DNA of 64,000 nt from an uncultured Acetatifactor sp. (GTDB lineage Bacteria; Bacillota; Clostridia; Lachnospirales; Lachnospiraceae): positions 23,758 through 87,757 of the forward strand of contig CAJUGL010000006.1 in the NCBI GenBank assembly GCA_910586515.1, in the 5' to 3' direction. Of the stretch, positions 3,226 through 44,413 are shown in pieces. The notes beneath the pieces were generated by a model. It saw only the letters and a program-made list of their open reading frames with translations, was not told the origin of the DNA and made no database searches. Within the stretch, counting starts at the first letter, position 1. Each line of letters opens with the position of its first letter. The translations under genes and the position numbers were made by a program.

Positions 3226-3239
3226 GTCATTCCTTCCGC

Positions 3240-23188: not shown

Positions 23189-23294
23189 AATTTATCTCCT
23201 TTACATGCTTACATGAATCTCGTGTCGATATTTCCGTACTTTCGCAGCAGTCCGGCGCCCGGTCTGAACCGCTGCGTTCTTTCCGCTTACCTGC

Positions 23295-24554: not shown

Positions 24555-24630
24555 TTTTCTCTCTCCGTTCTTTGTGTCCATATCCCTTTTTCAGTCCATT
24601 CCTCCCAATACCCCGATAGTTTCCTTCCGT

Positions 24631-25497: not shown

Positions 25498-25545
25498 ACC
25501 TCCTGTTCCGTTTTCTAAAACAACCCCCTCTACCAGGCAGCGCTC

Positions 25546-27009: not shown

Positions 27010-27076
27010 TTCCCGCCCTTTCCTTTCCGTAACCTTCTCCCCGCATCGGTTCAGACCGAATACTGAACCCGGGAAT

Positions 27077-27835
27077 TTAATAAATATTCCTGCCGCTGAA
27101 TATCTCGATCATCTCCCTGCGCAGGTTGTCCATAATCTCCAAGCGCAGCTTTGGCGGCAGCTCATAGACATCGCTGTTAAAAAGGTAATTCTGCAGATCA
27201 ATCTCCTTGATCAGCATCTTGGTGTGAAAGATGTTCGCCTGATACACATTGATATCCACAGCATCATATCTTTTCAGGGTATCCTTGTTGATATAATCCT
27301 GAATGGAGGTCATCCTGTGGTCCATGAACAGCTTCTCCCCGCTGACCGCCCTGGTAAAGCCCCTGACCCTGTAATCCATGGTGATGATATCGGAGTCAAA
27401 GGAGCCGATGAGATGATCCAGGGTGGACAGGGGCGTAATCTCCCCGCAGGTAGCCACGTCTATATCCACCCGGAAGGTGGCCAGACAGGTGTCCGGATGA
27501 TATTCCGGATAAGTATGCACGGTAATGTGGCTCTTGTCCAGATGGGCCACCGTGGTATCCCCCACAGGCACCTTGCTCTCGTCCGCAATGAGGATGGTCA
27601 CCGAACTCCCCTGTGGCTCATAGTCCTGGCTGGAGATGTTCAGCACAGTGGCGCCGATCATATTGGTCACATCCACCAGAAGTTTGGTCAGACGCTCGGA
27701 ATTGTACTGTTGATCGATATAGGCAATGTAATCCTTCTGCTCTCGCTGAGACTTTGCATAGCACACATCATAGATGTTGAAGCTGAGGGACTTTGTTAAA
27801 TTGTTAAAGCCGTACAAAGCAAGTTTTTCGCTCAT
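27077..27835 (-). CDS. speD: S-adenosylmethionine decarboxylase proenzyme (long, E. coli-like form)
   Basis: 252 aa. [17 protein letters not shown]..., and the self-cleavage region ...[10 protein letters not shown]...[14 protein letters not shown], resemble class 1B AdoMetDC. Confidence 0.8.
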
Positions 27836-28517: not shown

Positions 28518-28901
28518 TTATTCATACCTGCTTGCCTGCAGCTTAAACAGATGCGCATATACTCCTCCTTGTCTAAGCAGCTCTGAATGCGATCCCTGCT
28601 CAATAATCTGCCCATTGCTTATCACTAAAATCCTGTCTGCGAGTGTTGTGTTGGACAAGCGATGAGAAACCGTCACCAGGCTCTTGCCGTCACTGAGACG
28701 GTAAAGCTGCTCGAACATCTTATTTTCCGTTATCGGATCCAGTGCTGCCGACGGTTCATCAAGTATCATAAATTCCTTTTCAGCATACCATGCCCGGGCA
28801 TAGTTGATAAGCTGCCACTGGCCGCCTGACAGATCTTTGCCATCAGGGACATACCGGCACCCCAATCTTTTGTCACATAGCTTATAAACAGCCCCCACCA
28901 T
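28518..28901 (-). pseudogene. C-terminal fragment of an ABC exporter ATPase domain (5'-truncated)
   Basis: The ORF encodes only ...LGCRYVPDGKDLSGGQWQ (signature), FMILDEPSAALD (Walker B), VTVSHRL (H-loop) and the C-terminus. Walker A and the membrane domain are missing. Confidence 0.75.
28860..28888. repeat. 29-bp direct repeat, copy 1 (CCCCAATCTTTTGTCACATAGCTTATAAA)
   Basis: An identical 29-mer recurs at 31251-31279. Confidence 0.95.
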
Positions 28902-28970
28902 TACCAGGCCGTTCTGTCTCTCGCAATATGTCCAGACAAAAACTGGTATCAGAAGCAGCCGGAATGTTCC

Positions 28971-30737
28971 TCACCCAATCAGCACTTCCTTCCCCCGAAA
29001 CGCAAAACCATACTTTCGGATCCTATTCGTTGGAATGCCTTTCGCTTCCAGAGCTGCCGCATATTTCATGTCTTCAATCTGTTTCAATGCAGACTGTACC
29101 GTGTCTTCCAGCGTCCGCTCTCCCCCTTCCGGGTCATATACCTTGAATTCCATAATAATCGCATCTTTACCGCGACTATTTAATATTGCATCGTCACCCT
29201 GATTCTGCGGCTCCAGCATCACGTCATACCTGCCAAAACCGCTTTCTCTGTTGGAACTGACCATATATTGCCCACGCAGATCCACCAGCAGCCCCAGGAC
29301 GAAGCCATGGTAGAACCGCTCCGGCTCGTTCGCTTCGGATGGCCTGTTCCCGCTGTCAAAGAAACTGAAAGTATCCAGAGCCACCCGGTTCATGTAACGG
29401 TTCATCTCGCGGAGGTTGCCTTTCAGCAGGGCCTTCACGAACCCATTATAGGCGGGGGTGTATTCCTTGAACCACTCGTCGATCATTCCTTCAAACATGG
29501 ATTGAACTTCCCTGTTCGTCAGGGCCAGGTCATATTCCGGCCTTCCTCTTTCCATATCAAAGACGACCGAATCCACACGCAGATAGCCGCTGGCAAGGAG
29601 CAGGCTCCAGACGGCGCTATCCTTATAGTCCAGTTGATTGAAGACAACCTGCTCGTCCAATGCCGTATGATAGGCATCTCCCTTCAGAAGGCCCTCCATC
29701 GTCATCTTCACCTCCGGGCCGCTTCCGCGAATCAGCTTTCCTGCCAGACTGTTGGAACTGGTGTTCGCCCAGTAGGCATCCAGCTTACCCTTGTCCAGGA
29801 AGTTCAGGATGGACCAGGGATTGTAGATGTCCCGCCTGTCCCCAAAGACAAAGCCATCATACCAGCTCTTCACGTCCTGTTTCTTCCCACCCAGACCATA
29901 CTCCTCCAATGCGGCAAATACCTCTTTCTCTGTGAAGCCAAAGGAATCCGCATATTTATTGGACGTGGTAGTCACTACCTCCAGATTGTTCAGATCCGAG
30001 AACAGCGACTCCTTGCTTATCCTCGTAATCCCGGTCAGGATTGCCCTCTCCAGGTAAGGGTTCGTCTTGAACGCTGCATTGAACAATCCTTTCATGAAGT
30101 CCGACAATTCCGTCCAATAGCCGTTCAGATAGGCCTCCTGCATAGGCGTGTCATACTCGTCCAGCAGGATGATGACTTTCTTCCCATAGTAGCGCGACAG
30201 GTAATTGGATAGGGCATTCAGGGAATCGGCGGCCATATAGTCTTCCATTTCCACTGATATCTCCTGCCATGTGCCCTTTTCGTCCTGGTTCAGACAGTCG
30301 CTGTCGGCCAGGAAAGCATATTTATTATACAGATTTTTGATAATCAGGCATATCTTCTTCCTTGCGTTGGTAAAGTCCGTTTCTTTCACCTTGGCAAAGG
30401 ACAGACTGATGACGGGATAGGTCCCCTGCAGCTGTCTGTACTTATAAGCCACTTCCGGAAGACTTTCCTCTCCCGGAGAATCATCCCTGTCAGTTCTGTC
30501 CTGCCAGATGGAAAACCCTTTGAAAAGTTCCCCTCCGCCTGAATATTCTACAGAGAAAAAGTGCTCCACCATACTCATGTTAAGGGTCTTGCCGAAACGT
30601 CTCGGCCGGGTGATCAGGGTGACTATGTCATTGTTTTCCCACCACTCCTTTATAAACAGGGTCTTGTCAATGTAAAAACAACCTGACCGGATCAACTGCC
30701 CGAAATCCTGATGTCCGATACCTACTGTCCTTGCCAT
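28971..30737 (-). CDS. AAA-ATPase-like / PD-(D/E)XK nuclease family protein (PF09820 + PF08011 type)
   Basis: 588 aa. The N-terminus [28 protein letters not shown]...[21 protein letters not shown] is the characteristic predicted-AAA-ATPase block. The C-terminal GRYDVMLEP...IIMEFK matches the PDDEXK_9 type. Confidence 0.8.
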
Positions 30738-30871
30738 GGTGATACCTCCCGGAAAACATTTGCCATGTCTGCATTGTCCTCATGGAGCTGCCGCAGAACT
30801 CCATAAGACTTGATTCTATGGTTCTATTTTAAGGGATTCCCAGGAAAAGTCAATGGAGAATTCGCTGCTCA

Positions 30872-31340
30872 TTACAATACCCTTCCGTCCCGCATTTGTA
30901 TCCTTTTCTTTGCATAAGCAGCCATCTCCGGCGAATGCGTTACCATAATGATCGTCATGCCCTGACACGCTCCTTTTTCCTGATACCGGCATATCCAAGC
31001 GGCATACAGACATTGTCCAAAACGCTGATTTCATTCACCAGATTGAACGCTTGAAATACAAAGCCAATTTGGATAGGAAATATCCCGTCCGCTGTACTCC
31101 TCTTTCTTGATTTTATAATCTTCAACTGTTATTTGATCGCCTATATGCAGCCCGCCGTATTTTTCAGAAAGCGACTGCTCAACTAAACATATATTTGCTT
31201 CAGTAAACAGCTCTAACGATCCGTCGATGATCTTACAGTTTTCAAATTGGCCCCAATCTTTTGTCACATAGCTTATAAATCCATCTTTCGTCACGATATG
31301 CCAGGCCGGAAGGACGGAGGAATTTGCCCTTTCCGTTTCC
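30872..31340 (-). pseudogene. scrambled remnants of a MacB/LolD-type ABC system (FtsX-like periplasmic domain piece and two ATPase pieces)
   Basis: My translations give three pieces. One is ...CKIIDGSLELFTEANICLVEQSLSEKYGGLHIGDQITV (MacB periplasmic-core-like). The second is GFVFQAFNLVNEISVLDNVCMPLGYAGIRKKERVRA* (Q-loop region, 30955-31065). The third is GMTIIMVTHSPEMAAYAKKRIQMRDGRVL* (H-loop to C-terminus, 30872-30961). They are in different frames, and the signature and Walker B are missing. Confidence 0.65.
31251..31279. repeat. 29-bp direct repeat, copy 2
   Basis: Identical to 28860-28888 and 2391 bp away from it. Confidence 0.95.
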
Positions 31341-31450
31341 TAACTGTCCCACTTGCCTTATTTCATTTTCCAGAAAGTCATATTCTCTTAAGCAATTGCC
31401 GCCCAGTATTTCTATGTAAAACAGCCCTACTCCATAACAGCATTGAAACA

Positions 31451-32575
31451 CTACCAAACCTCTTCCGTTACATCAAGATTTGAAACAGACGTTAAATACC
31501 CTATTAAAATCTCTTTTTCTCTTCTTTTGATCTCAACCAAATTATCCATTATGCTTACCAACACATTATCTAATACCTGACCCATTACTACTTTTCCAAC
31601 CAGCTTTATATACAGCATACGTATCATTTTACTTCGTCTAACCACCTCAATTCTATAATCTATAACATACTTTTCTAATATTTTCTCCAAACCATTCTTT
31701 TCCACAAAATAGCTTAATCGCTTCTCCATTCCTTCATAGAAACTCCATAACATATTTATAGCTGGCTGTTGGTTTGCAAACTGATCATAAATAGTTCCAT
31801 TATGAGTCATTACCTGCAACATATTAAGATACTGTATCAATACTTCCACAATATTAACCCCAAATGCTATTCTGGACTCTTTACTTTCTATCATATAAAG
31901 ACGATGCCCATAATACAAGGTATATGGCATTTTGCCTTTTATATATTGTTCCAGTTTTTCAATAAAATAATCATTTCTGTATGGATATTCTTTATCATGG
32001 GCCACTAAATCCATCGTTATGAACATATATTCCTGCCATCCTGACCCATTCCGAATATGCTTAATAGCATCGCCAAAACTTTTCTTCACCTCATCATAGG
32101 TAATTTCAAAACACTGGTATAAATTGTCTAAATACCCATAACATTTATAACGTTTTACCTCATCATCATATCCATAAAATAAAATTTCATGTATATAATG
32201 TTTTTTATGGTAATACTGCTGAAAACAACTTAATTCGTTAAAATCCAGAAAAAGCACACAATAATACTCTTTAAAAATCTCTTTCCTTAACACTTCATTT
32301 ATATCTTCTATTTGCTCACAAAACTCAACATTTACACTATTAATTCTCATAATCTTACTGTATACATTAGAATCGGACCCATATACAAAAGAATCATCAA
32401 TAGTGCATGTTAAACATGTCGGTCCATCAAGCATAATGATAGGCAACATATAATTTACATAATACCAATTATGAAACTTCTTCTCTCCCATAATTGCTGC
32501 AATTGGGAAACAAACAAATTGGGGCCCAATAAAGTTATTATTTACGGATAATTCCATTACAAATTTCTTCTCCAT
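31451..32575 (-). CDS. hypothetical protein, 374 aa (possibly BtrH_N/DUF4872-like; weak recollection)
   Basis: Start chosen at MEKKFVMELS (ATG 32573-32575, GAGGAA about 5 nt upstream). An extended -10 (TGATATAAT) lies on the minus strand at about 32750. The gene is very AT-rich and has no signal peptide or TM segment. Confidence 0.6.
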   Translation of the reverse strand: MEKKFVMELSVNNNFIGPQFVCFPIAAIMGEKKFHNWYYVNYMLPIIMLDGPTCLTCTIDDSFVYGSDSNVYSKIMRINSVNVEFCEQIEDINEVLRKEIFKEYYCVLFLDFNELSCFQQYYHKKHYIHEILFYGYDDEVKRYKCYGYLDNLYQCFEITYDEVKKSFGDAIKHIRNGSGWQEYMFITMDLVAHDKEYPYRNDYFIEKLEQYIKGKMPYTLYYGHRLYMIESKESRIAFGVNIVEVLIQYLNMLQVMTHNGTIYDQFANQQPAINMLWSFYEGMEKRLSYFVEKNGLEKILEKYVIDYRIEVVRRSKMIRMLYIKLVGKVVMGQVLDNVLVSIMDNLVEIKRREKEILIGYLTSVSNLDVTEEVW

Positions 32576-32857
32576 TATTTCCTCATTCCTGCAATATGTG
32601 CTCATGTCCATAAGACTCAATAAAATATATAAGAAGAAAGCACATCCCTCATGCAAAATATGCTGCGCTTTTCTTTCTGCCAAAGGCATTCTTCTTTACG
32701 TCACATTCAATTACAGCTAAACACACTTACTTCTAATCTCAACCGCACTCGTCTATTATATCAGAAAACTCTCTATAAAATCGAAAAATTACGGACTTTA
32801 CAGACCCTTTATAAGTCTGAAGTTCACTGGTTAAGAAATAAGATAGAAGCACATTGT

Positions 32858-34621
32858 TCATTGGTAACTTGCCGCCTGGGCATCCCACATTTCCCTGTAT
32901 AAACCGTTTCGGCTCAACAGTTCTTCATGTGTGCCGTCTTCTACAATCCGGCCTCCGCTCATCACCAAAATACGATCTGCCAGTCTGGCCGAACCTAATC
33001 TGTGGGAAATGATGACTGCAGTTTTCCCCTTCGCCATTCTCAGAAAATTCCGATACACGGTATATTCTTCAACCGGGTCTATTGCTGCCGTAGGTTCATC
33101 CAGAACAATGATTTCATGACTGCGGTATCGCCCTCTGGCAATGGCTACCTGCTGCCACATACCACCGGAAAGATCAATGCCGCCGAACTCCCTGGAAAGC
33201 ATGACTACATTGCAACCGTCTACCAGTCCTCTGTCCAGTGAAGTGCTCTCCAATACAGTCTTTGGGTTTTCCTCACTTTCACGTTCGCTGATTTTTACAT
33301 TATCGGATAAAGTCATCTGGTATCTGACAAAATTCTGAAAAACGGCCGACATGCACTTCCGGCAGCTTTTATACCATGTATCTTCTGCCTTTACTCCTCC
33401 GATTTCAATTCGTCCCTCCCCGGTAGGGTACAGGCCTAAAATCAATTTTGCCAAAGTAGATTTTCCTGCGCCGTTTTCCCCCACAACTGCCACATACTGT
33501 CCCGGCTGGATATGAATATTAATATCCTTTATGGACATAGCGGATGCATTTGGATAGGAAAAGGATACATGATCCAGAACAATCCCTCTCTGCAAATCAA
33601 GCTCTTTTCCTTCCTCTCTTCCGCTTTTCCTTCTTCGTTCAAGAAAACTCACATAATTTTCAACTGCAGGCAAATTGCTGACGGTACTTCCTATAAATCC
33701 GCACACCAGAGCAAACATCATGTCAAACAAATTGTTCAGTGAGTTATAGACCGCAGCAAAAGCTCCTACGGATATAGTGCCCTGCAGCACGCTGGCCACA
33801 AGAAGAATCAACGCTGCAAGATATCCGGTAAGTCCTACTGTATTGTCAATCGTCTCCAACAAAGTGGTTTGTTTTTTTACTTTTCTTTCTTCCCTTCTCA
33901 AGCGTTCCCATTCTGCAGCAACTCTGCCATAGAAATAATTGCCTGCTCCCAAAATTCGTGTTTCTTTTAAAAACTGCCTGCCTATGATGCAATCTTTAAA
34001 AGCATAATAACGTCTTCTGACAGGAGCTGCCGTATCTTCGAGCTTTGTGTAAATCCCTCTCTGCATATATAAAGTAAAAACAGCCGGAAGAAATGCCGCG
34101 ATTATGCACAGCAGCAGCCAGGAATTCAGAGAAGACACATAAAAACACATAAAAATAACATATGGCGGAACCATGTCGATTATGCCGATGATATGAAAGA
34201 TAAATACATGGGCAACATTTCTTCCCGCCTCGGCCTTCTGTATTTCATCCAATGTCTCGCTGTGTTCAAATTCTATCGGCGACAAATCAGAGACAGCCCT
34301 GTTGTATTCAAATCTGAATTTTTCATTACATATTTCCCGGTATTCGTCCAGAATATAGTTAAAAAGGGTGTTAAAAATCTGGTATCCGATAATCCCTGCC
34401 ACATACAGCGATATCCATAAAATAAGGCTTTCTCCAACCTCTCCTTTAGACACAGAAGCAATCAGGGCATCCACAAACCTGGACAGCAATAACGTATTCA
34501 CTGCCAGTACCGCTGATTGTGCAATTCCAAAGAAATTTATCAGAAAAAAACGCACAGGCGCCACTTTAACTGCAATAGGAAGCATCACCCGAATCGTATG
34601 TGCTATTGTTATTTTTTTCAT
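32858..34621 (-). CDS. ABC exporter, fused permease/ATPase (type I exporter half-transporter)
   Basis: The ATG at 34619-34621 overlaps the upstream stop (ATGA); the ORF track uses GTG at 34630. It has a 6-TM N-domain, Walker A GENGAGKST, signature LSGGMWQQ and Walker B IIVLDEPTAAID. Confidence 0.85.
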   Translation of the reverse strand: MKKITIAHTIRVMLPIAVKVAPVRFFLINFFGIAQSAVLAVNTLLLSRFVDALIASVSKGEVGESLILWISLYVAGIIGYQIFNTLFNYILDEYREICNEKFRFEYNRAVSDLSPIEFEHSETLDEIQKAEAGRNVAHVFIFHIIGIIDMVPPYVIFMCFYVSSLNSWLLLCIIAAFLPAVFTLYMQRGIYTKLEDTAAPVRRRYYAFKDCIIGRQFLKETRILGAGNYFYGRVAAEWERLRREERKVKKQTTLLETIDNTVGLTGYLAALILLVASVLQGTISVGAFAAVYNSLNNLFDMMFALVCGFIGSTVSNLPAVENYVSFLERRRKSGREEGKELDLQRGIVLDHVSFSYPNASAMSIKDINIHIQPGQYVAVVGENGAGKSTLAKLILGLYPTGEGRIEIGGVKAEDTWYKSCRKCMSAVFQNFVRYQMTLSDNVKISERESEENPKTVLESTSLDRGLVDGCNVVMLSREFGGIDLSGGMWQQVAIARGRYRSHEIIVLDEPTAAIDPVEEYTVYRNFLRMAKGKTAVIISHRLGSARLADRILVMSGGRIVEDGTHEELLSRNGLYREMWDAQAASYQ

Positions 34622-36468
34622 ATGTACCACTCCCTCTGTTTATCAAACATCATTCTATATGTTCCATTGCGCTCCATGAGGGATTCATGACTTCCGGTTT
34701 CCTTTACCCTGCCGTCTTCTATTACAAAAATACAGTCGCATGCTGCTGTAGCACCAAGCCTATGGGTAATCATGATTGTCGTCCTGTCACAGTATGCCTT
34801 GGAAAATTGCTGGTACACCTTCTGTTCCTGTACAGGATCCACCGCCGCTGTCGGCTCGTCCAGAATCTTGACTGGTGATGCATTATAGTGCATTCTTGCC
34901 ATGGCAACTCTCTGCCACTCGCCTCCGGATAAATCCACAGATTCGTCTAAGACTTTTCCCAATGCCGTCTCCAAACCTCTGGGCAGCTTTTTCACGACAT
35001 GCTCCAGTCCGGCTTCTGACACAGCCCGATCTACCCTGTCTGCATCTTTCTTTCCCATACATCCTCCCAAGGCAATATTGTCCGCCAAAGATACAGGATA
35101 TCTTGCGTAATCCTGAAAAAGAACCGAGAAAATCCTCCAGATATGTCCTGTTTCATATTCCCTGATATTTCTACTATTCAATAAAATCTCCCCTTTGTCC
35201 GGCTCATACAGTCTCAGGATCAATTTTACAACCGTAGACTTCCCGCATCCGTTTTTGCCGGCAAATGCATAATGCATCCCTTTCTTCACCTGAAAAGACA
35301 TATTCTTCAGCACCTCTTTGTCCGTGCCCGGATAACGGAAGCTGACATCTCTAAATTCCAGAGATTCAAAAGTCAACTCTTGGCCCCAAAATGCAACGTC
35401 ATCATCTGTCCCTCCACAACCTCTCTCTCCGGAAACTCCACCCTTCTTTACAACAGTCTCTTGAAGTACATCTGTATAAAGCGGCATTTCCATCACAGTG
35501 TTAAAGTCCCCAAGCATCATTTTGCTCCTGGACAACTCCTTTATTCTATTCGGAAACTGCCACGTAACCATCTGTATCATTGACATAAATGCTGTCACCA
35601 GAGAAACGAACAGCCCTACGGAAGTCTCCCCTTGCATCACCGCCGGCAGCAACAGCAAGAGCACAATAATAGAAATGCCGGCTGCTGCATATCCTCCTAT
35701 ATTCATTCCCATAAACCACAAAAAACGAGCCTTTTGCTCTTTCTTTCTCGCCTGACGGCTTGCCGCAAGAAATTCTTTGTTTACTGCTTCACTGTAACCA
35801 AAAAGAGTCCTCTCATTTACCGCATCACGATTTCCCAATATTTTTTCATAATAATCTGCTTTTCTTCGACAGGCCGTCACCTCGGCATGGACATTGTACT
35901 GCCGCTCACCGCCTCTCAATGCATAGAATCCAAAAACCGTCAACACAGCAATAATTACAAAAGACACCCATACTGGCATCTGAAACACCAGAATCGATAC
36001 CAAGCTCATATTTGAAATGAGGAAAACTGCCAGCTCCAAATAACCTTCCATAATTCCTGACAATATTCCCTCCGGGTCACCCGCTATGCGGGAAAAAATA
36101 TCCTGGGCGGAATCATCCTCTATATAGGAATACTGCAGACACGCTACCCTCTCCGTAATCATTTGATCAACCGCTGGATACGTTTTTTCACGCTGAATAA
36201 GTCGGAAAAGGGAATACCAATTGTTTCCAAGCCTCTGAACCAGCTGGACAAGCGCCAGTAAAACTGCGCTGCAGACTGCAGGCCTTACTCCCAGAGTTGC
36301 CGCCGCCAATGCTCTATCTACAAACTGCGCCCCCAGCAGCACTGCCGCAAAGGGCAGCATTGAAAACATGCTCTTGAGCAAAAGCATGGCAAGCGTTGCC
36401 CATAGCGCATGTTTAAAGAAAAAGAAAAACACTCCCCTGATAGTAAATCTCTTATCTCTTCCTCCCAT
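34618..36468 (-). CDS. ABC exporter, fused permease/ATPase (probable heterodimer partner of 32858..34621)
   Basis: 616 aa with RBS GAGAGG. It has Walker A GKNGCGKST, signature LSGGEWQR and Walker B KILDEPTAAVD. It is translationally coupled to the next gene. Confidence 0.85.
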   Translation of the reverse strand: MGGRDKRFTIRGVFFFFFKHALWATLAMLLLKSMFSMLPFAAVLLGAQFVDRALAAATLGVRPAVCSAVLLALVQLVQRLGNNWYSLFRLIQREKTYPAVDQMITERVACLQYSYIEDDSAQDIFSRIAGDPEGILSGIMEGYLELAVFLISNMSLVSILVFQMPVWVSFVIIAVLTVFGFYALRGGERQYNVHAEVTACRRKADYYEKILGNRDAVNERTLFGYSEAVNKEFLAASRQARKKEQKARFLWFMGMNIGGYAAAGISIIVLLLLLPAVMQGETSVGLFVSLVTAFMSMIQMVTWQFPNRIKELSRSKMMLGDFNTVMEMPLYTDVLQETVVKKGGVSGERGCGGTDDDVAFWGQELTFESLEFRDVSFRYPGTDKEVLKNMSFQVKKGMHYAFAGKNGCGKSTVVKLILRLYEPDKGEILLNSRNIREYETGHIWRIFSVLFQDYARYPVSLADNIALGGCMGKKDADRVDRAVSEAGLEHVVKKLPRGLETALGKVLDESVDLSGGEWQRVAMARMHYNASPVKILDEPTAAVDPVQEQKVYQQFSKAYCDRTTIMITHRLGATAACDCIFVIEDGRVKETGSHESLMERNGTYRMMFDKQREWYI

Positions 36469-36485
36469 TTCTAACCTCTCTCGTT

Positions 36486-36880
36486 TTACACATAATCATC
36501 TGTATATTCTACAGGAAACTTCAAACCTTCAGGAACCTGTCTGCTCTCATAGTGTAGATTTCGCATCTGCAGCAAACGACTATTCCCAAATTCCAGAAAG
36601 TGCAGAATGCCTTCTTCAACATAAGAACAATTAGGCGATAATGCAGACACACCCTGGATTTTATGCAAGTTCGTACAGACCGGACGCTTGGATAACCGCA
36701 CAGTAAGAAGAATCCTCCTCAAATAGATCAAATGTATTTGCATAATACCCCCTGGCATTTTCTTCCCAATAACTGTTCGTTAATATGGTTACAACTCCAT
36801 CTTCACACACCGGAATATCCGTTTAGAACGTACTCTCACCTCCAGGCAATTCGTCCAGGGCATATTCGCTCTGGTATTCA
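36486..36880 (-). pseudogene. frameshifted remnant of an unidentified ~130-aa gene
   Basis: Three consecutive protein-like reading segments sit in three frames: FEYQSEYALDELPGGESTF*; TDIPVCEDGVVTILTNSYWEENARGYYANTFDLFEEDSSYCAVIQASGLYELA*; ...VEEGILHFLEFGNSRLLQMRNLHYESRQVPEGLKFPVEYTDDYV*. G+C is higher than in the neighbouring genes. Confidence 0.4.
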
Positions 36881-36884
36881 AAAC

Positions 36885-38571
36885 CTATGAAAAAAATGAA
36901 ACAATGCTTTCACACAACAAACTCATATCATCATTCCAACCAAGTATAAATACGGGTAATTTCAGATCATTAAAGAGTCTATTTTTTATCTCTACACACT
37001 CTTCATTACCTAGCCTTATTTTATTTCCATGTACTCCTCGCCAATCATCTGGTAATGTCATTGGATACACCACCAATGCAAGGACTTTGCAGTCAGCTGC
37101 TCCCTCTAAGAATTTGATTGTATTCTGAATATATTCATTCGAATCAAAAGGATTTACACAAAGCACTACTGCATCAGGTTTTGTGCCACATAGAAAGTAA
37201 AATTGCTTACAAGGAAATGCATTTATGTGCATTTGTCCAAGAGGAATTGTATTTGCCTGTGAACCGACCATAATAATATCATACTCTTTTTCACAAAGTG
37301 AATTCATCATATTATTTAAAACACTGATTGCATCCTGATCCGTCACACTTACTGCTGAATTATACCCCATTGGATAAACCCATTCCATTCCCAATAATCT
37401 TGCATGTGGTTCTGTTCCAATACATCCAACCTGATACCCTTCCTTTTCTAATCCATATTTCATAAGCATCTGCAATGTAAACTTACCTTGTTGCGATGAT
37501 GTTCCAAAAACACCTACAACCGGTTTTGAAATATTGTATAGTTATAACAACTTCTCTAATATCACTTTTTAAAAGGCTCATCAACATATCCATATGACCA
37601 AGAATAAGTGTATCTATTTTTTGCCAATCTATTTTTTTAATATCTCTTAATGTGTAACCGTTTACTTCCTCAAGGTTCGTCAGTAAATTGTTAGTTGAAA
37701 CCCCCACTCGCCCTGAATGTATAACGTCATATATTTCCTTGATATTAAAGTTCAGTTTTGGGGCAAATCTCACTAACGAGTGCATTTCCTTATTAAAAGG
37801 AAACAATGCCACATTATTAAGCGGCAAGCTTTCATATGCACAAGGAAAACGAGATTCATTATGTTGTCTATCTTTATTAACTCTAATTGCAATTTTCTTA
37901 AAAGCTGATAACACTTCAACCCTATTATTTGCCCCATTCATCATAATATTAAATGCATATGCGGAGACATAAGCACAAGCAAAGCTATTACCACCAAATA
38001 TTGCATATTGTGGTTGATACCAAGCCACACGCTGCATTGCCCCTCTAGCCCTTATGTTAACCGCGCTATTCTCAACATACTCATAATGTGCTGACTGTGT
38101 ACATAATTCGCTTGCCTCAACCCCTATTACACTTTCTAAACATGCCGGATACGAAAGGCTTCCATCGTTAGAAAATGCAGCAATTAAAACCATACCACTA
38201 TCAACCAATTCCTCACAAACCTTTTGAATACTTAAAACTTCTGTACTAATCTTTACCCCTAGACTTAGATTGACAATCTTACACTTGATATTTTTCTTAA
38301 TGTACTGCAATATTAAAATCAACTCTTTATCTGTCAGCTCTACATCTACATTATCCCATACCTTCATGTTATAAATTGAGGCAAAAGGTGCATTTTTACT
38401 GATAATTCCATAGACTGCCGTACCATGACCGATTACATCTTGAATATTTTTGTTTTCCTGAATTTCTCCTTGCACAAAAGAAAGCGCAATACCATTTATC
38501 ATATTTTTGTTAAACGCTGGGTGTTCTAGATTTACTCCACTATCCACAATCACAATGTCTGTTGATATCAT
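36885..38571 (-). pseudogene. cytoplasmic subtilisin-like (S8) protease fused to a P-loop (DUF1611-like?) domain, interrupted by a one-nucleotide frameshift near 37525-37545
   Basis: ORF 37483..38571 carries the S8 motifs VIVDSGV (Asp), HGTAV (His), VNLSLG (Asn) and GGNSFACAY (Ser), and has no signal peptide. Reading one frame over from about 37541 gives ...NISKPVVGVFGTSSQQGKFTLQMLMKYGLEKEGYQVGCIGTEPHARLLG..., which continues into ORF 36885..37475. The two ORFs therefore form one gene of about 560 codons. Confidence 0.65.
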
Positions 38572-38622
38572 TATTTATCCCCCATATATCTGGTACAATT
38601 ACTTCACTCTTTTATCCATTTT

Positions 38623-40422
38623 TTATGTATTTGTTGTATAGTATTGCGCCTGCAAGTTATACAATTCGGTATACTTTCCACCTAATTCAAGTAATTGCTT
38701 AAAATTACCCTGTTCAACAATCTGACCATTGTCAAATACAAGAATTTCATCACAAAATTGTGTGCTTGCCAGTCTATGTGAAATATAAATAGAAGTTTTA
38801 CCTTTCACCAGATCAAAAAACTTGATATACATTTCATGTTCTGCTACAGGATCCAAGGCCGCTGTCGGTTCATCCAGCACCAATATTGGTGCATCTTTAT
38901 ACTTGGCCCTGGCAATTGCAAGCTTTTGACGTTCACCACCAGATAAATCAAGACCCTCTGGATCAAAATTACGTGACAGACTTGTTTCCACCCCATTCTT
39001 AAGTGTCTTTAGCTTATCACCAAAACCAACCTCCTGAAGAATCTCTTCCATCTTATTTATTTCATTAGGAAACTTCTCTGCTCCCAAAGAAAGATTTTCG
39101 CGAATTGAAAATGCAAATAGCTTAAAATCCTGAAATACAGTTGCAAACAATCCCATATATTCATCATAATCAATCTCTTTTATATCAACACCATTTAAGA
39201 GTATACGGCCTTCTGTGGGATCATACAATCTCATTAACAGCTTTACAAACGTACTTTTTCCTGCTCCATTTTCGCCAACTATGGCAATACTTTTTGTTGG
39301 AGTAATATTTATATTAATATTTTTTAATGCATAAGTTTCCTGTCCCGGATACTTAAAAGAAACATTTTCAAACGATATCCTTGGATTCACTTCTACCACT
39401 TCTGATAAAACTTTAGTGCCTGTCCGAAAAGTACTTTTAAGATCCATAAATTCTACAAATCTACTTAGATACTTACTTTGTGATGCAATGTCTATGATAG
39501 AAGTAGCAATCCCTTTACTTGCTGAATTAAAGGTATTTAATGCATTCAAGTACATGCTAAAGGAACCTACCGTTATTGTTCTCAATACTACAATCTGGTA
39601 TCCCAAGATTGTATAAGCAAGAAAAGTAAATAGGTTATTTGCTACAAGAATCACTAATGAACATCTTAACTCCCTCTTTTGTCGGCTTTTAAAATAGGTT
39701 AAGATAGACTGACGAAAGGTATCAATTTTTGCTCTGAAAAAATCTACCGCTGAATATGCCAAAATATCCTTTCGCTGTTCTGTATCCCACGAAAGATAAG
39801 CCATATAGCCAATACGTCTTAAATAAGGTTGTACATCCTCCATATATTGTCTTTGTCTTTTTCTATTTTGAGATGACACAACGCTATGAACAACTAAAAC
39901 TATTAAAGATACCCAAATTAAAATTGCATTGGTGGTGATTACAATCGCTATCACCCCAACGAAGATCATCATATTTGAAAACAGTCCCTTAACGTTCTCC
40001 AGCAATGATACAAGATTATTACTATTACAGACTCTAGCAGCGTAATCAGCCATATCTCGAGTCTTTGGATCATCCCAGACAAAATAATCCATCTCCATAC
40101 ACTTCTTGTCAATTTCCGAATTTATAGTAAATTCCATTCTCTGTTTTAAAAAAACTAAATGCTTGGATAGGATCATTTCTATAATAGCAATAAACATTGA
40201 TATTATAATCATTGCAACGGAAAGGTAAAGCACATACTGGTAACTTTTCCCATTCATAAATCCATCGATGATATACTTAGGGAAAATTATCATTGGAAAG
40301 GACCCTAATGCACTAAATATAGAGTCAACAATCATAAAAAACAAAAGTGATTTATCATACTTTAGTATTAACTTAAATAATGTACGTATCTGCCGAAAGT
40401 CAAACGTTTTAGTCTTAAACAT
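38623..40422 (-). CDS. ABC exporter, fused permease/ATPase
   Basis: 599 aa with strong RBS GGGAGGA. It has a 6-TM N-domain, Walker A GENGAGKST, signature LSGGERQK and Walker B ILVLDEPTAALD. There is no N-terminal C39 peptidase domain. Confidence 0.85.
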   Translation of the reverse strand: MFKTKTFDFRQIRTLFKLILKYDKSLLFFMIVDSIFSALGSFPMIIFPKYIIDGFMNGKSYQYVLYLSVAMIIISMFIAIIEMILSKHLVFLKQRMEFTINSEIDKKCMEMDYFVWDDPKTRDMADYAARVCNSNNLVSLLENVKGLFSNMMIFVGVIAIVITTNAILIWVSLIVLVVHSVVSSQNRKRQRQYMEDVQPYLRRIGYMAYLSWDTEQRKDILAYSAVDFFRAKIDTFRQSILTYFKSRQKRELRCSLVILVANNLFTFLAYTILGYQIVVLRTITVGSFSMYLNALNTFNSASKGIATSIIDIASQSKYLSRFVEFMDLKSTFRTGTKVLSEVVEVNPRISFENVSFKYPGQETYALKNININITPTKSIAIVGENGAGKSTFVKLLMRLYDPTEGRILLNGVDIKEIDYDEYMGLFATVFQDFKLFAFSIRENLSLGAEKFPNEINKMEEILQEVGFGDKLKTLKNGVETSLSRNFDPEGLDLSGGERQKLAIARAKYKDAPILVLDEPTAALDPVAEHEMYIKFFDLVKGKTSIYISHRLASTQFCDEILVFDNGQIVEQGNFKQLLELGGKYTELYNLQAQYYTTNT

Positions 40423-40434
40423 ATATTATCCTCC

Positions 40435-40759
40435 CTAATATTGAGAACAGAATACAAAGTCGTCCACATAGACTACTAGCCCTCCATACCCCTTTAGCCT
40501 TGGCTGTATGCATTCCCTGAACCACCATACCAGTACATGGATATAATATAGCCTCACATTATGTCCACTGCATCGTCTCCGTGGGCCGCCTTTCCTCGGA
40601 CGGAAGACTGAGGACCTACGGCAATGGCTTTATTTGGGCAACGCTATCGAATATCTGGGGCGTTAGGCAAACTGTATTGCCATCACCAACTTCAGGATAA
40701 AGTCTTTTGATGAGGATTCCGTCACCTTTGTGGCGAAAGACGTGTCTTGGTATAATCAT
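40435..40759 (-). pseudogene. relic of a group II intron-type reverse transcriptase gene (motifs ~3-5 only, frameshifted and truncated)
   Basis: This higher-G+C patch lies between AT-rich genes. The minus-strand frames read ...GDGILIKRLYPEVGDGNT..., ...VGPQSSV... and ...LYYIHVLVWWFRECIQPRLKGYGGLVVYVDDFVFCSQY*. Bacterial intron RTs, as I recall them, read ..GTPQG..ANLYLHYVLDLWF....PRLKG...LVRYADDFV..FQY. The YVDD codons are rc of 40459-40470. Confidence 0.5.
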
Positions 40760-40770
40760 GAAAAATCACA

Positions 40771-40825
40771 TTCAGGGCAGCTTTATCTTTTGTAGAAAGC
40801 TACCCTTTCTTTCTGCCCTGAATAT
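40771..40825 (-). terminator. intrinsic terminator after the transglutaminase-like gene
   Basis: The minus strand reads TTCAGGGCAG (structured 35-nt loop) CTGCCCTGAA followed by TGTGATTTTTC. Confidence 0.6.
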
Positions 40826-40839
40826 GATACTTCACTTAC

Positions 40840-41688
40840 TCAATCGGGTAACTTCCAAAATTCTAAAGGATTAGATATAAATATTTCCACCTGTTTTGTG
40901 TTGGTTTCATTGTAATATCTAACAATTTTACTAGTAGCAGATAAATAATTACATGGCACTAAGTTGACTGCATTGACGATACGATTTTGGGCAAGATTAT
41001 CTTTATATGAGTTCTCAAAGCAACGAAAACGATAGACATGCTTTGACATATATATAAGTACTCTCTGGGCAAAAAAATGCTGCTCTCTACTAGAAATAGT
41101 ATCCCTTATTCCGTCTACTCGTGATACATTGATTGATTTTTGAAACACGAAATAATCGCGGAGTTCCTGCAGATTCAAAATCATTCCCGCATCATCCTGA
41201 AAATATACACCATGAGCCGCATCAAATAAAAGCCACTTATTACATTCCTCAGAATATACAATATTAACCACATGGCTTCCATATGGATGAAAGTCAATCG
41301 GTAAACAAAATATGATTCTACTCAAGTATCCAAGTGCCCTAAAAACTTCATTTAATACACAAGCATATGTATAACAGCTAGCCCCATACTTTCCCCCACT
41401 GATATCAGCAATCATATCTGTAACTCTACTTTGCGATTCCAAAGGTAGTAAATCATTAGATAAAATCTGTGCAACCCACCTGGTTGCATTAACAAATGTC
41501 TCAACTTCTGTTTTTCCACGTAAATTCTCGATACCATACTGTATTCGCAATGCATCTATCTCATTTGACGAATATGAATAATCAAACTTAATATTATGTT
41601 CTTCATACGCGTACCCAGATACTCTAAGGAAATCCACATATACGTCTTTAGTTGCAAAGTCTGTAAGACCAAATTCAATATTTCTCAT
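40840..41688 (-). CDS. transglutaminase-like (papain-fold) domain protein, cytoplasmic
   Basis: 282 aa. It has the Cys...His...Asp arrangement GASCYTYACVLNEVFRALGYLSRII....YGSHVVNIVYSEECNKWLLFDAAHG, typical of the transglutaminase-like superfamily. There is no signal peptide. Confidence 0.65.
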   Translation of the reverse strand: MRNIEFGLTDFATKDVYVDFLRVSGYAYEEHNIKFDYSYSSNEIDALRIQYGIENLRGKTEVETFVNATRWVAQILSNDLLPLESQSRVTDMIADISGGKYGASCYTYACVLNEVFRALGYLSRIIFCLPIDFHPYGSHVVNIVYSEECNKWLLFDAAHGVYFQDDAGMILNLQELRDYFVFQKSINVSRVDGIRDTISSREQHFFAQRVLIYMSKHVYRFRCFENSYKDNLAQNRIVNAVNLVPCNYLSATSKIVRYYNETNTKQVEIFISNPLEFWKLPD

Positions 41689-42154: not shown

Positions 42155-42199
42155 CAATATGACAAATTAGTTTATTTTTTCAACTAATTTGTCATATTG
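42155..42199. promoter_or_regulatory. perfect 18-bp inverted repeat (candidate operator and/or bidirectional terminator)
   Basis: CAATATGACAAATTAGTT (42155-42172), a 9-nt loop, then AACTAATTTGTCATATTG (42182-42199). The right arm overlaps the predicted -35 of the small secreted-peptide gene. Confidence 0.55.
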
Positions 42200-42266: not shown

Positions 42267-42494
42267 ATGAAACATAATAAACAGCGCTTCAAAGCATCAG
42301 TATCCCTATTGGCGCTGCTGCTTACATTATCAACAGGAACAATATTTCACGGCCCGGAAACAGAAGATATGAGAACCGCATCTCCGACTCCGAGCCTTCT
42401 TGCTGCCCAAGAAACCAAGCCCGCAGCGATTTCAGAATGTACTCAAACGCTAACGGATTTAGATGGTGATAAAACGAAAATAACAGAGAATTGA
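42267..42494 (+). CDS. small secreted protein (75 aa) with a Sec-type signal peptide; candidate signalling pro-peptide
   Basis: Strong RBS AAAGGAG 7 nt before the ATG. The signal peptide has a basic n-region MKHNKQRFK and an h-region ASVSLLALLLTLSTGTIF, with no lipobox Cys. The hydrophilic remainder ends ...TLTDLDGDKTKITEN. Confidence 0.6.
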   Translation: MKHNKQRFKASVSLLALLLTLSTGTIFHGPETEDMRTASPTPSLLAAQETKPAAISECTQTLTDLDGDKTKITEN

Positions 42495-42502
42495 CGGTTA
42501 GA

Positions 42503-44413
42503 TTATTGTAAATATTTTTCTCTCCGTTTTTCTAAAAAACCTTTCAGGGCAGAATCATACATAAACCCGGCCATTGATTCGCTTATTCGAAAGGCTTTTT
42601 CCCAAACCTGCCGGAAGGATGCGTATTCTTCCGGCTTTTCAGCAGCAATTTCGTAAGCGTTCCACGCAATATGGTAAAACAGATCTTCAATACTGCTGAT
42701 TCTGAAAAGCAAAAGTGATTTCAATATCATACTTTCACCATACTTTACAGTATTGTCAATGCAGCGGATATCGCCCAGGTAGTTATCATAATTTTTATAC
42801 GCAATATCAAAGCCATAATGAAAGATGCCTGTCCTGAAGCTGTTTTGTTCAATGGAAAAAAGCACCGCCTCGTACCACCTCTTCGCCTCTTCAAGATGGC
42901 CAAGCCTGCGATATAAGCTGCCTATATTGCTTGCAATCATAATTTCCTCCCGCTGAAAAACCCACCACTTCATATCCCGGTCCTCAAAGTCAGGCACCGT
43001 ACAGCGCATCGCTTCCAGCAGCATTTCCAGGCATTCCCGCAGATCGCTCCCCTTAATTTCCTTCAAAATAGCCTCAAAGAACAGAAGTTCCTGCCTCACC
43101 CTGCGAGACGCCGGATTTACTGAACGCCGGAATTTCTCAAACTCCCATTCCGCCTGTTCCCACTTCCTATATTCCATCAATGTACTGATCAGCTGCCGCT
43201 GCTCCAGAACCTCCAGAGAGTCCGTTTCCAGCAGAGGCATATTCCATCCTCCGAATTTGCCGTATTGCTTCGCCAGCCTTCCGTAATTTTGGTAGGATGG
43301 TTTGTGAAGCCCCTTTTCTATTCTTTCCAGCTGTCTGGGCGTGATTACAAGCTCATCGCCGTCAAAGACAGCGTTCTCTCTGGATTTTCCGTAAAATGTC
43401 CGAAGCATTTTCAGCGTCATTCCGGCATCCCTGGTATTATCCACAGAGATTCCCTGCCATATGCGATACCCGGGATAGTTAAACCAGGCATAAATATCCC
43501 GGAACATTTTCCGGAAATCCTTCAGCTGTTCCGGATATTCCGGTTCATCAAAAAGAACAGCGTCAAATTCGAGCAGGCAGTCCAGCAGCGGCAGTACATA
43601 GCAATGGCAGCTATTCCTGCGCAGCAGCTCCAGAGTCTCCCGCCCTCTTGCAGCCATTCTTCCCATGGTGATATCCGGGATGAAAGCAGCGTCAAAAAAT
43701 CCGTCCGATGCGGATGCCATCCGTATTCCCAGGATTACTGCCTGGGGCAGTGTCATTGCCGTCACACGCTCTCTCCAGCCGTGCTGCCCGGGATAATCCC
43801 ACACTGCCTGCCACAGCTGCCCGGCCTCCTCCTTACGGCCATTTATAAACAAAGCTGCGCTTGCCAACAGGACAGCATCCAGCTCCCCCGGAGAAAGACA
43901 GAATGACTCCAGGCCTTGTGTCCAACCGTCCGGGACAGTACAGTTCACCGCTTCCACGGCAGTATCCAGGATAACCGCAGAAGCTTCTCTGCCCCCTGTC
44001 CTTTGCCCGATCAGCATTAAAATAACCTCCGCTTTCAGCAGAAACTGTTCTTCCAAAGGTTCCCGTTTTTTGTACTTTTTCCTGTAGTTATGGATTGCAG
44101 CGGCCGCTTCCTCAGGCTGTTCGGGCACAAGCAGGCAGATATCCTCCCGGCTCCGCCAGCGTTCCAGATCTTCCCCGGAAGCCAGAGATTCGAAATATTC
44201 CGGAGGGATCCCCATCCGCAGCATCAGGGTATCTCCCTCCATCTTTGTCCACTGTACAGTTCCCTTTTCCACCCTATCCAGCATGGTCCGGCTCATTATG
44301 CCCGAAGATAATTTTTCCAGGGTCAGCTTTCGCTTTTTTCTTTCAGCGCCAAGGATTTTGCCGTATACCTTATTGTATTCCTGTATAAATTCCTGTTCGT
44401 TGATTGTTCTCAT
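42503..44413 (-). CDS. XRE-type HTH transcriptional regulator with a long TPR-like C-terminal domain (RRNPP-like architecture)
   Basis: 636 aa. The N-terminal HTH is KLTLEKLSSGIMSRTMLDRVEKG. The remainder is all-helical and repeat-like (e.g. IGSLYRRLGHLEEAKRWYEAVLF). Its stop is 8 nt from the stop of the convergent small gene. Confidence 0.7.
   Translation of the reverse strand: MRTINEQEFIQEYNKVYGKILGAERKKRKLTLEKLSSGIMSRTMLDRVEKGTVQWTKMEGDTLMLRMGIPPEYFESLASGEDLERWRSREDICLLVPEQPEEAAAAIHNYRKKYKKREPLEEQFLLKAEVILMLIGQRTGGREASAVILDTAVEAVNCTVPDGWTQGLESFCLSPGELDAVLLASAALFINGRKEEAGQLWQAVWDYPGQHGWRERVTAMTLPQAVILGIRMASASDGFFDAAFIPDITMGRMAARGRETLELLRRNSCHCYVLPLLDCLLEFDAVLFDEPEYPEQLKDFRKMFRDIYAWFNYPGYRIWQGISVDNTRDAGMTLKMLRTFYGKSRENAVFDGDELVITPRQLERIEKGLHKPSYQNYGRLAKQYGKFGGWNMPLLETDSLEVLEQRQLISTLMEYRKWEQAEWEFEKFRRSVNPASRRVRQELLFFEAILKEIKGSDLRECLEMLLEAMRCTVPDFEDRDMKWWVFQREEIMIASNIGSLYRRLGHLEEAKRWYEAVLFSIEQNSFRTGIFHYGFDIAYKNYDNYLGDIRCIDNTVKYGESMILKSLLLFRISSIEDLFYHIAWNAYEIAAEKPEEYASFRQVWEKAFRISESMAGFMYDSALKGFLEKRREKYLQ

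Follow-up and report, generated by a model that had tools for sequence, protein, structure and literature searches.

The AT-rich island at 31–43 kb of the 64,000-nucleotide stretch analysed here (the window; contig CAJUGL010000006.1 of an uncultured Acetatifactor sp.) encodes three ATP-binding cassette (ABC) exporters, a broken S8 protease/P-loop gene, a transglutaminase-like protein and a 374-aa protein. The island is very probably a non-producing allele, with deletions, of a horizontally acquired radical SAM (rSAM)/SPASM cluster for a ribosomally made peptide with post-translational modifications (RiPP) in Acetatifactor-like Lachnospiraceae. Two deletions separate it from intact alleles of the same species. 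Since the genes for the maturase, the carrier and the precursor are deleted and the protease/P-loop gene is split, the window allele cannot make the peptide. The copy in the window is thus a case of ordinary gene decay and not a new system, and the presence of processing and export genes without a substrate is explained by a recently broken biosynthetic cluster.

An intact allele and two deletions

The intact allele was found by a search with the repaired S8/P-loop protein, which led to protein P0001 and its contig L001, and the 636-aa regulator of the window served as the query that retrieved conspecific contigs. In the intact allele the regulator is followed by the transglutaminase-like protein, the rSAM/SPASM enzyme, an acyl carrier protein (ACP)-like protein, a 46-aa precursor, an ABC exporter and a fusion of an S8 protease with a DUF1611-like module. 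On L001 the genes after the regulator encode products of 282 aa (transglutaminase-like), 462 aa (rSAM), 88 aa (ACP-like), 599 aa (exporter) and 607 aa (S8-DUF1611 fusion), with a small open reading frame (ORF) of 46–49 aa in front of the exporter gene that encodes a precursor with three cysteines, MKKTLKKPIKKTDKFLQMYNSNVYENECTNSGTACGNKSSYCFTVR. The transglutaminase-like genes of L001 and the window are 100% identical. Contigs L019 and L020, whose dihydrofolate reductase gene and regulator flank is 99.2% identical to that of the window, place the whole cluster at the same chromosomal site, with the rSAM/SPASM enzyme, the 88-aa ACP-like protein and the 46-aa Cys-containing precursor encoded between the transglutaminase-like gene and the first exporter gene.

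Nucleotide comparison shows that a segment of 2124 bp (L001 positions 1257–3380) is missing from the window at 40838|40839. The junction is blunt and lies two bases past the stop codon of the transglutaminase-like gene; the deletion took the genes for the 462-aa rSAM/SPASM maturase, the 88-aa ACP-like protein and the precursor of 46–49 aa. A second deletion removed 137 bp, i.e. 46 codons plus a frameshift, at the sequence AACT (37540–37543), and shows in the alignment of P0001 with the window protein as a 46-aa gap within an otherwise near-identical protein of 607 aa. A single-base frameshift in an AAAA run was considered as the cause of this break, and was rejected because the P0001 alignment shows the 137-bp deletion instead.

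It is hardly credible that these deletions are assembly or sequencing artefacts in a genome that holds an intact cluster. Intact- and window-type contigs do share long stretches at 99–100% identity, and metagenome assemblies can collapse strain variants, but the same junctions are found in contigs that were assembled independently from several samples with several pipelines, and the 4-bp microhomology at the second junction is typical of real slippage deletions. Contig L018 is 100% identical to the window along 21.9 kb, the first junction is also crossed by L021–L024 from four further samples, and the split of the protease gene into ORFs of 362 and 196 aa recurs in L109, L111, L112 and L114. 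The recurrence of the deleted allele in at least six independent samples (ERZ27298437, SRR26864374, SRR9205167, SRR32497462, SRR12398547 and SRR19502511) argues against an assembly artefact, and because conspecific contigs share the junctions of the window, the deletions must be real and circulating.

The deletions are also recent, because the gene for the 599-aa exporter differs by only 2 nucleotides from that of the intact allele in L019 (23 nucleotides from that in L001). The public collection has ∼61 contigs with intact 607-aa variants of the fusion, compared with 10 that have the 362-aa ORF of the window type. Another inactivated allele of the S8-DUF1611 gene (P0261, P0262), which is independent of the deletions in the window, is present on 8–9 contigs of a lineage that is ∼91% identical; its frameshift follows residue 415, directly behind the P-loop, and gives products of 423 and 192 aa. 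Inactivation is therefore recurrent. A single species harbours the intact allele alongside at least two that were inactivated independently, and these natural mutants could serve for the study of production, immunity and social cheating.

The strain may keep the remnant as a module for immunity or 'cheating', in which the exporters, perhaps together with the transglutaminase-like and 374-aa proteins, provide resistance to the peptide of conspecific producers. This is compatible with decay of the cluster and adds a selective reason to it, and it is regarded here as rather unlikely, if worth considering. The five remaining genes are full-length ORFs, producer and non-producer alleles co-occur in public metagenomes in the numbers given above, and loss of function has happened repeatedly. 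In addition, L002, with the intact allele, and L108, with the alternative arrangement of L107 described below, both originate from sample ERZ28567832. However, the deletions are too recent for the intact surviving ORFs to carry any signal of purifying selection, and the immunity role of the remaining genes is putative.

Layout of the island

The features of the island and its margins are listed in Table 1. As the first-pass annotation had noted from hand counts, the island is AT-rich: in 1-kb windows its G+C fraction is 0.35–0.36 at 31–33 kb, 0.43–0.45 at 33–37 kb and 0.33–0.40 at 37–43 kb, against mostly 0.48–0.56 in the rest of the 64-kb window. According to the ORF list all large ORFs of the island lie on the minus strand, again as annotated. 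The three exporters are permease-ATPase fusions for which hidden Markov model (HMM) searches against Pfam returned ABC_tran only and no C39 domain, in agreement with the earlier description. The stop/start overlap ATGA that had been reported for the exporter pair at 34618–34621 follows from the ORF coordinates and the gene call of 587 aa, and the second gene of the pair is predicted to be translationally coupled to the first through this overlap.

Table 1. Positions of the cluster remnant, its deletion junctions and adjoining features in the window.
Feature	Position	Strand	Basis
636-aa regulator, helix-turn-helix (HTH, XRE-type) and tetratricopeptide repeat (TPR) domains	42503..44413	-	Pfam HTH_3 and TPR
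Perfect 18-nt inverted repeat with 9-nt spacer, candidate operator	42155..42199		repeat scan
Transglutaminase-like Cys-His-Asp protein, 282 aa, intact	40840..41688	-	HMM, triad, identity to L001 gene
Deletion 1 junction, 2124 bp gone	40838..40839		BLAST of L001 and L019 against the window
415-bp spacer, ∼44% G+C, 5' of exporter gene, containing the putative 'RT relic' frame	40423..40837		BLAST
ABC exporter, 599 aa, permease-ATPase fusion without C39, intact	38623..40422	-	HMM
Truncated 362-aa ORF: QhpE-like S8 domain, start of DUF1611-like module, frameshifted tail	37483..38571	-	HMM, alignment
Deletion 2 junction, 137 bp gone, 4-bp microhomology AACT	37540..37543		alignment to L001/P0001
C-terminal DUF1611/TIGR04066-like remnant (196-aa ORF 36885-37475)	36885..37539	-	HMM
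137-bp boundary segment	36515..36651		contig comparison
ABC exporter pair, first gene, 616 aa, intact, ∼45% G+C	34618..36468	-	HMM
ABC exporter pair, second gene, 587 aa from ATG	32858..34621	-	HMM, ORF call
374-aa BtrH/CcbD-like protein, predicted papain fold, intact	31451..32575	-	survey, predicted fold, HMM
Gene debris: shuffled MacB-type fragments (NHL, FtsX, FtsX, ABC ATPase)	30658..31409		comparison with L107

Two smaller claims about the layout were not borne out. The 374-aa gene, which is called at the same length in public data, had been credited with its own extended -10 promoter; the sole promoter-like site 5' of the gene (32683..32655) lacks the TG element, and promoter-like sites across the island occur at chance level (43 found, 38 ± 5 expected). 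A relic of a reverse transcriptase (RT) had been suspected in the frame at 40435–40557, with the motif YVDDF, which has no Pfam match; the window has no Rfam match either. The 415-bp spacer that contains this frame is also present in the intact allele (L001 3381–3797) and is missing from the L116 lineage.

The S8 protease/DUF1611 gene

The window ORF retains the catalytic residues Asp10, His49, Asn135 and Ser196 of the S8 domain, the four motifs recognised at the outset, and none of them varies among 26 homologues. The domain begins at residue 1, so that, as annotated, there is no signal peptide. It scores 107–108 bits (E 3e-31, positions 2–216 of 219) against the NCBIfam profile NF049966 for QhpE, which has a cut-off of 165, and 64 bits against Pfam Peptidase_S8, and is also close to intracellular subtilisins.

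The protease domain had been described as joined to a GxxxxGK domain. In the window this is not the case, as the 137-bp deletion puts the two in different frames, represented by the ORFs of 362 and 196 aa. Residues 1–344 of the 362-aa ORF match P0001, while the P-loop GTSSQQGK is encoded at 37482–37505 in the other frame, upstream of the first possible start codon (TTG at 37475). The C-terminal fragment still scores 26.1 bits against DUF1611 (cut-off 25) and 48.4 bits (E 6.5e-13) against TIGR04066. For the intact fusion P0001 these values are 42.2 bits for DUF1611 (PF07755) and 95.3 bits for TIGR04066, the latter along profile positions 2–357 of 361 with a cut-off of 200.

The two-domain architecture is shared by more than 1200 relatives of ∼600 aa found in a search with the repaired protein, and the P-loop is invariant among the homologues aligned. 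PDB sequence searches with the DUF1611 half gave nothing useful, and the fold comparison alone was informative: in an AlphaFold model (pLDDT 88.4) the C-terminal half matches 2obn and 2g0t, which are DUF1611 structures, as well as DgcN (7xrj), with E-values of 1e-11 to 6e-9 for the C-terminal 350 residues and TM-scores on the target of ∼0.7.

Occurrence of the cluster type

In a scan of one genome per species, 189 stretches encode an S8-DUF1611 fusion, and 80 species-level loci among these were surveyed by iterated ORF searches. The hosts comprise Lachnospiraceae, Oscillospiraceae, other Clostridia, Paenibacillus, Tumebacillus, Treponema and other spirochaetes, and Latescibacterota. ABC exporters are encoded in 75 of the 80 loci, the ACP-like protein in 67, an rSAM homologue in 64 and the 374-aa family in 60; the transglutaminase-like protein (10/80) and the regulator homologue (7/80) are rarer. 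Several loci without an rSAM or ACP-like gene end at contig edges. The commonest gene orders are R-A-p-S-X-X-B and R-A-p-X-X-S-B (R, rSAM; A, ACP-like; p, precursor; S, S8 fusion; X, exporter; B, BtrH-like protein, i.e. the 374-aa family), with paired exporters in 50 family loci. The cluster type is thus widespread, and an rSAM enzyme, a carrier with an invariant serine, a papain-fold transacylase-like protein and a fusion of a protease with a DgcN-like module are found consistently together. In addition, 65 of the loci contain 90 precursor-like ORFs with a common leader, MKK-L-KP-KK...(L/V)Y-x-N-E, and short Cys-rich cores (median 15 aa with 3 Cys).

These data bear directly on the proposal that the island is a working, rSAM-independent maturation and export or surface-modification system, in which the S8 protease and the transglutaminase-fold enzyme would act with three exporters on a substrate encoded elsewhere. 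The S8 domain is indeed intact within the 362-aa ORF, as is the catalytic triad of the transglutaminase-like protein. However, the gene set equals that of the intact cluster minus two deletions, base for base, the S8-DUF1611 gene is frameshifted, and related loci pair this fusion with an rSAM and an ACP-like gene at the frequencies given above. HMM searches and ORF inspection found no rSAM, cyclase or precursor gene within the window, as annotated, and the rSAM and precursor genes are exactly what the first deletion removed. A working system of this kind is therefore most improbable. Of the earlier interpretations, a RiPP-like peptide maturation and export locus agrees with the rSAM and precursor genes of the intact conspecific allele, and decay with the two deletions, but a new combination of genes that lacks rSAM does not, because the intact allele carries one.

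A cluster that is ∼92% identical occurs in another chromosomal context in L116–L118, from metagenome-assembled genomes of Lachnospiraceae from the mouse gut. There (L116 748–3750 and 6570–7439) it adjoins a gene for LanM, a class II lanthipeptide synthetase, and a DDE_3 transposase gene lies between the ACP-like and precursor genes. The LanM gene in L116 has its own adjacent 55-aa ORF and is not conserved with the cluster. The occurrence of this cluster elsewhere is in line with horizontal mobility, as with the low G+C content of the island. The suggestion that the island is mobile-element cargo is therefore partly retained, given the insertion sequence in the related lineage; the window itself contains no integrase or tRNA, and tRNA and repeat scans show no hallmarks of a mobile element at the island ends. 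In a further locus (L008 4854–7921) the cluster is preceded by an Agr-like set of a LytTR response regulator, a histidine kinase, a 57-aa ORF and AgrB, and a LytTR two-component pair is located near the cluster in L010.

The 374-aa protein and the carrier

The 374-aa protein had been taken for an orphan. Its gene call stands, but the survey places it among the core members of the cluster type. The AlphaFold model (pLDDT 85.8) has strands and helices in residues 1–238 and helices in residues 239–365. This predicted two-part fold, an N-terminal α/β part and a helical C-terminal domain, corresponds to that of CcbD-type transacylases. A Foldseek search with the model gave nine matches with E ≤ 0.001, all to CcbD or AziU3/U2 (best E 1e-6, TM-scores of 0.5–0.6), including a structure of CcbD bound to a peptidyl carrier protein domain. 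PDB sequence searches with the family profile gave nothing useful. The family counts 3096 representatives at E ≤ 1e-10; a BtrH_N match is found in 14 of 46 members and is weak in the window protein (412/374 aa). The potential catalytic residues of the window protein are Cys22, His129 and Asp137. In the family alignment the His is present in 44 of 46 members and the Asp in 34 of 46, and the Cys column, which lies in an N-terminal region of low identity, is occupied by Ala in 24 members and by Cys in 6.

Domains of this family also occur at the C-terminus of hybrid polyketide synthase/nonribosomal peptide synthetase (PKS/NRPS) proteins and of adenylation-thiolation (A-T) proteins (P0311, P0396 and P0371). 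P0311, of 2689 aa, has the order KS...C-A-T...BtrH-like (KS, ketosynthase; C, condensation), and P0371, of 972 aa, the order A-T-BtrH-like. A search in the reverse direction showed that the closest homologues of the 374-aa protein all sit in clusters of the present type.

The putative partner of the 374-aa protein, the 88-aa ACP-like protein, gives weak generic ACP matches only (Pfam PP-binding 20.1, cut-off 20.8), but it retains the Asp-Ser motif, the serine of which (Ser40) is invariant in 70 of 70 sequences. A phosphopantetheinyl transferase is also encoded in two loci.

The rSAM enzyme, the transglutaminase-like protein and the regulator

The rSAM protein of the intact allele aligns near full length to rSAM/SPASM RiPP maturase families, in each case below the cut-off. 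The E-values are 8e-58 for TIGR04463, 6e-45 for Clo7bot, 5e-43 for CefB, 9e-38 for PapB and 7e-31 for CcpM. The best score, 196 bits against TIGR04463, compares with a cut-off of 525, and that of 107.7 bits against CcpM (TIGR04068) with one of 500; the score against Pfam Radical_SAM is 63 bits.

The Cys-His-Asp triad noted in the transglutaminase-like protein is confirmed as Cys105, His139 and Asp156, which are invariant in 12 homologues. Transglut_core (PF01841) scores 21.8 bits in the window protein, just under the cut-off of 23, and is matched by 10 of the 12 homologues, with a best E-value of 1.9e-8. Judged from its occurrence, the protein is an accessory member of the cluster type.

The 636-aa HTH/TPR protein is probably the transcription factor of the cluster. 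It shows weak similarity to ComR (E 0.011), and in L014 and L100 homologues with 47–50% identity stand immediately upstream of a cluster of this type. The stretch that separates the regulator gene from the first gene of the cluster contains the inverted repeat CAATATGACAAATTAGTT ... AACTAATTTGTCATATTG (Table 1), which overlaps a promoter-like site with the TG element and is a candidate operator for the regulator. A 75-aa ORF with a signal-peptide-like N-terminus (42267–42494, plus strand) is convergent with the regulator gene and is called in all conspecific contigs. It was considered as an RRNPP-type signalling propeptide; this was rejected, as no homologue is present beside the regulator homologues in L014 or L100.

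Proposed pathway and evidence against it

Comparison with homologous proteins suggests how the intact cluster may function. The rSAM enzyme would install thioether-type cross-links on the three-Cys core of the precursor, and the intracellular QhpE-like S8 domain would cut off the leader after the conserved (L/V)-Y-x-N-E motif. The phosphopantetheinylated ACP-like protein would carry a small acyl or aminoacyl group, which the DgcN-like DUF1611 domain may load onto the carrier and the BtrH/CcbD-like 374-aa protein may transfer to the peptide. The ABC transporters would export the product, protect the producer, or both, and the HTH/TPR regulator would control transcription, perhaps through the palindrome at 42155–42199. 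A hybrid pathway of this kind, in which an rSAM-cross-linked peptide undergoes a carrier-dependent modification, with loading by the DUF1611 domain and unloading by the 374-aa protein coupled to removal of the leader by the S8 domain, is put forward tentatively, as a possibility with the odds somewhat against it. If the carrier does take part in modifying a ribosomal peptide, gut anaerobes would have a hitherto unrecognised way of making acylated or extended RiPPs. The producer, deletion and frameshift alleles would then provide a ready-made genetic test of the hybrid pathway, and perhaps represent a producer/cheater polymorphism.

Several observations weigh against the interpretation of the island as a broken rSAM/SPASM RiPP cluster or against parts of the pathway. 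None of the cut-offs of TIGR04068, TIGR04066, TIGR04463 and QhpE is reached, and neither the 88-aa protein nor the 49-aa precursor matches TIGR04069 or TIGR04065 in NCBIfam at E ≤ 0.1; we infer thioether formation, leader cleavage and acyl transfer from homology alone. The expected nucleophile is Ala in most members of the 374-aa family, although the window protein has Cys22, and a covalent mechanism of the CtaG/CcbD type can therefore not be general. The exporter pair, with a G+C fraction of 0.45, differs in composition from the other island genes. Furthermore, the intact-allele contigs that reach position 36515 (L001, L002, L006 and L019) diverge from the window there, 46 bp upstream of the start of the 616-aa exporter gene. 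The divergent tails (L001 7842–8114, L019 10901–10955) are unrelated in sequence to the window, and the contigs end 55–273 bp further on. The contigs thus break before any exporter pair or 374-aa gene is reached, and it is not shown that one genome has these genes downstream of the intact cluster.

The possibility that the exporter pair and the 374-aa gene are the remnant of a second cluster was rejected, since the surveyed loci usually have S, X, X and B together in a single cluster; the G+C content and the divergence at 36515 leave some doubt. The 273-bp tail was also examined as the end of an IS1595-like transposase gene, which was dropped as there is no Pfam match. A third deletion, between two copies of the segment 36515–36651 and with loss of a MacB-type cluster as arranged in L107, was considered as well. 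Contigs of the L107 type join the window sequence at 36651, and the intact-allele contigs enter a different 273-bp sequence.

Surroundings of the island

The gene debris that had been noticed beside the island is confirmed. The segments at 30658–31409 and 28921–28988 are fragments of a MacB-type transporter cluster, which encodes an NHL-repeat protein, two FtsX permeases and an ABC ATPase. This cluster is intact in L107 (1367–5608), L108 and L110, directly upstream of the pair of 616- and 587-aa exporters. A perfect direct repeat of 29 nt (28860–28888 and 31251–31279) brackets a 588-aa AAA-ATPase_like/PDDEXK_9 gene. The island adjoins a polyamine biosynthesis block (21743–27835) with genes for an AdoMet decarboxylase, an Orn/Lys/Arg decarboxylase, spermidine synthase and a saccharopine-dehydrogenase-like enzyme, beside which lies an α-L-fucosidase gene; the block consists of ordinary housekeeping genes at the G+C content of the host.

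Comparison with known systems

The first-pass annotation had drawn analogies with the B proteins of lasso peptides and with LanP. Despite the transglutaminase-like triad, no lasso cyclase is encoded in the window or in the intact allele, and no LanB, LanC or LanM in the window, L001 or L019. Because neither allele has such a gene, the cluster is not a lasso peptide or lanthipeptide system; the protease is QhpE-like and the P-loop domain TIGR04066/DUF1611-like, and the analogies are abandoned.

With rSAM/SPASM thioether RiPPs, such as sactipeptides and ranthipeptides (families PapB, CefB, Clo7bot and TIGR04463), the intact allele shares a near full-length rSAM match and Cys-rich precursor cores. 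The combination of an rSAM/SPASM enzyme with an adjacent Cys-containing precursor is present in the intact allele and absent from the window. Unlike the members of these families, however, the rSAM enzyme scores under every family cut-off, and its cross-links are predicted from similarity. To our knowledge, no description of rSAM/SPASM thioether systems includes a carrier protein and a papain-like transacylase.

QhpE is an intracellular subtilisin-like protease that processes the rSAM-cross-linked QhpC of quinohemoprotein amine dehydrogenase. It provides the best NCBIfam match of the S8 domain, which like QhpE is a small subtilase that lacks both a signal peptide and a propeptide and occurs alongside an rSAM thioether enzyme. 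In contrast to QhpE, the S8 domain scores below the cut-off of 165 and is fused to a DUF1611-like module, and no qhp genes (qhpABCD; quinohemoprotein amine dehydrogenase) are present in the window or the related loci. The DUF1611 proteins of known structure comprise DgcN, a D-glutamate N-acetyltransferase (7xrj), and the structural genomics entries 2obn and 2g0t. The module resembles them in its predicted fold, a DUF1611 score above the cut-off and the invariant P-loop, but differs in being fused to a protease and, in the window, in being split, with the P-loop out of frame.

CcbD, BtrH, CtaG and AsbE are papain-like, carrier-protein-dependent transacylases or ligases (PMC12865890; PDB 7yn1 and 9dks), a group to which AziU3/U2 also belong. 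The 374-aa protein is related to this group by its predicted fold, the weak BtrH_N matches, the co-occurring ACP-like gene and the fusions with A-T and PKS/NRPS proteins. A carrier-protein partner is thus available in most loci, and was deleted in the window. On the other hand, sequence identity is only ∼10%, the nucleophilic Cys is not conserved in the 374-aa family, and the context is a ribosomal peptide cluster instead of a thiotemplated small-molecule pathway. In the searchable library, no literature was found that links DUF1611 or BtrH-like proteins to RiPPs, or that describes the biochemistry of this cluster type.

The closest described relative of the intact allele is the 'peptide maturation system' TIGR04065–TIGR04069 (Haft), which was defined bioinformatically and combines a CLI_3235 precursor, the Cys-rich-peptide rSAM maturase CcpM, a TIGR04066 protein and an ACP-related protein with a subtilase and an ABC transporter. 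Clusters of this system have been published from Paenibacillus polymyxa (SacP23; PMC10731318) and Roseburia intestinalis L1-82 (PMC4573289). The present clusters deviate from this system in the fusion of the S8 and TIGR04066-like modules into a protein of ∼600 aa, and every component falls under the curated cut-off or has no match. In addition, they include the BtrH/CcbD-like protein as an extra core member, which is not listed in the two published cluster descriptions, and the copy in the window differs further by the loss of maturase, carrier and precursor. Despite these differences, the intact allele contains the same parts as the described system: an rSAM/SPASM enzyme, an ACP-like protein, a TIGR04066/DUF1611-like module, an S8 protease, an ABC exporter and a short Cys-rich precursor.

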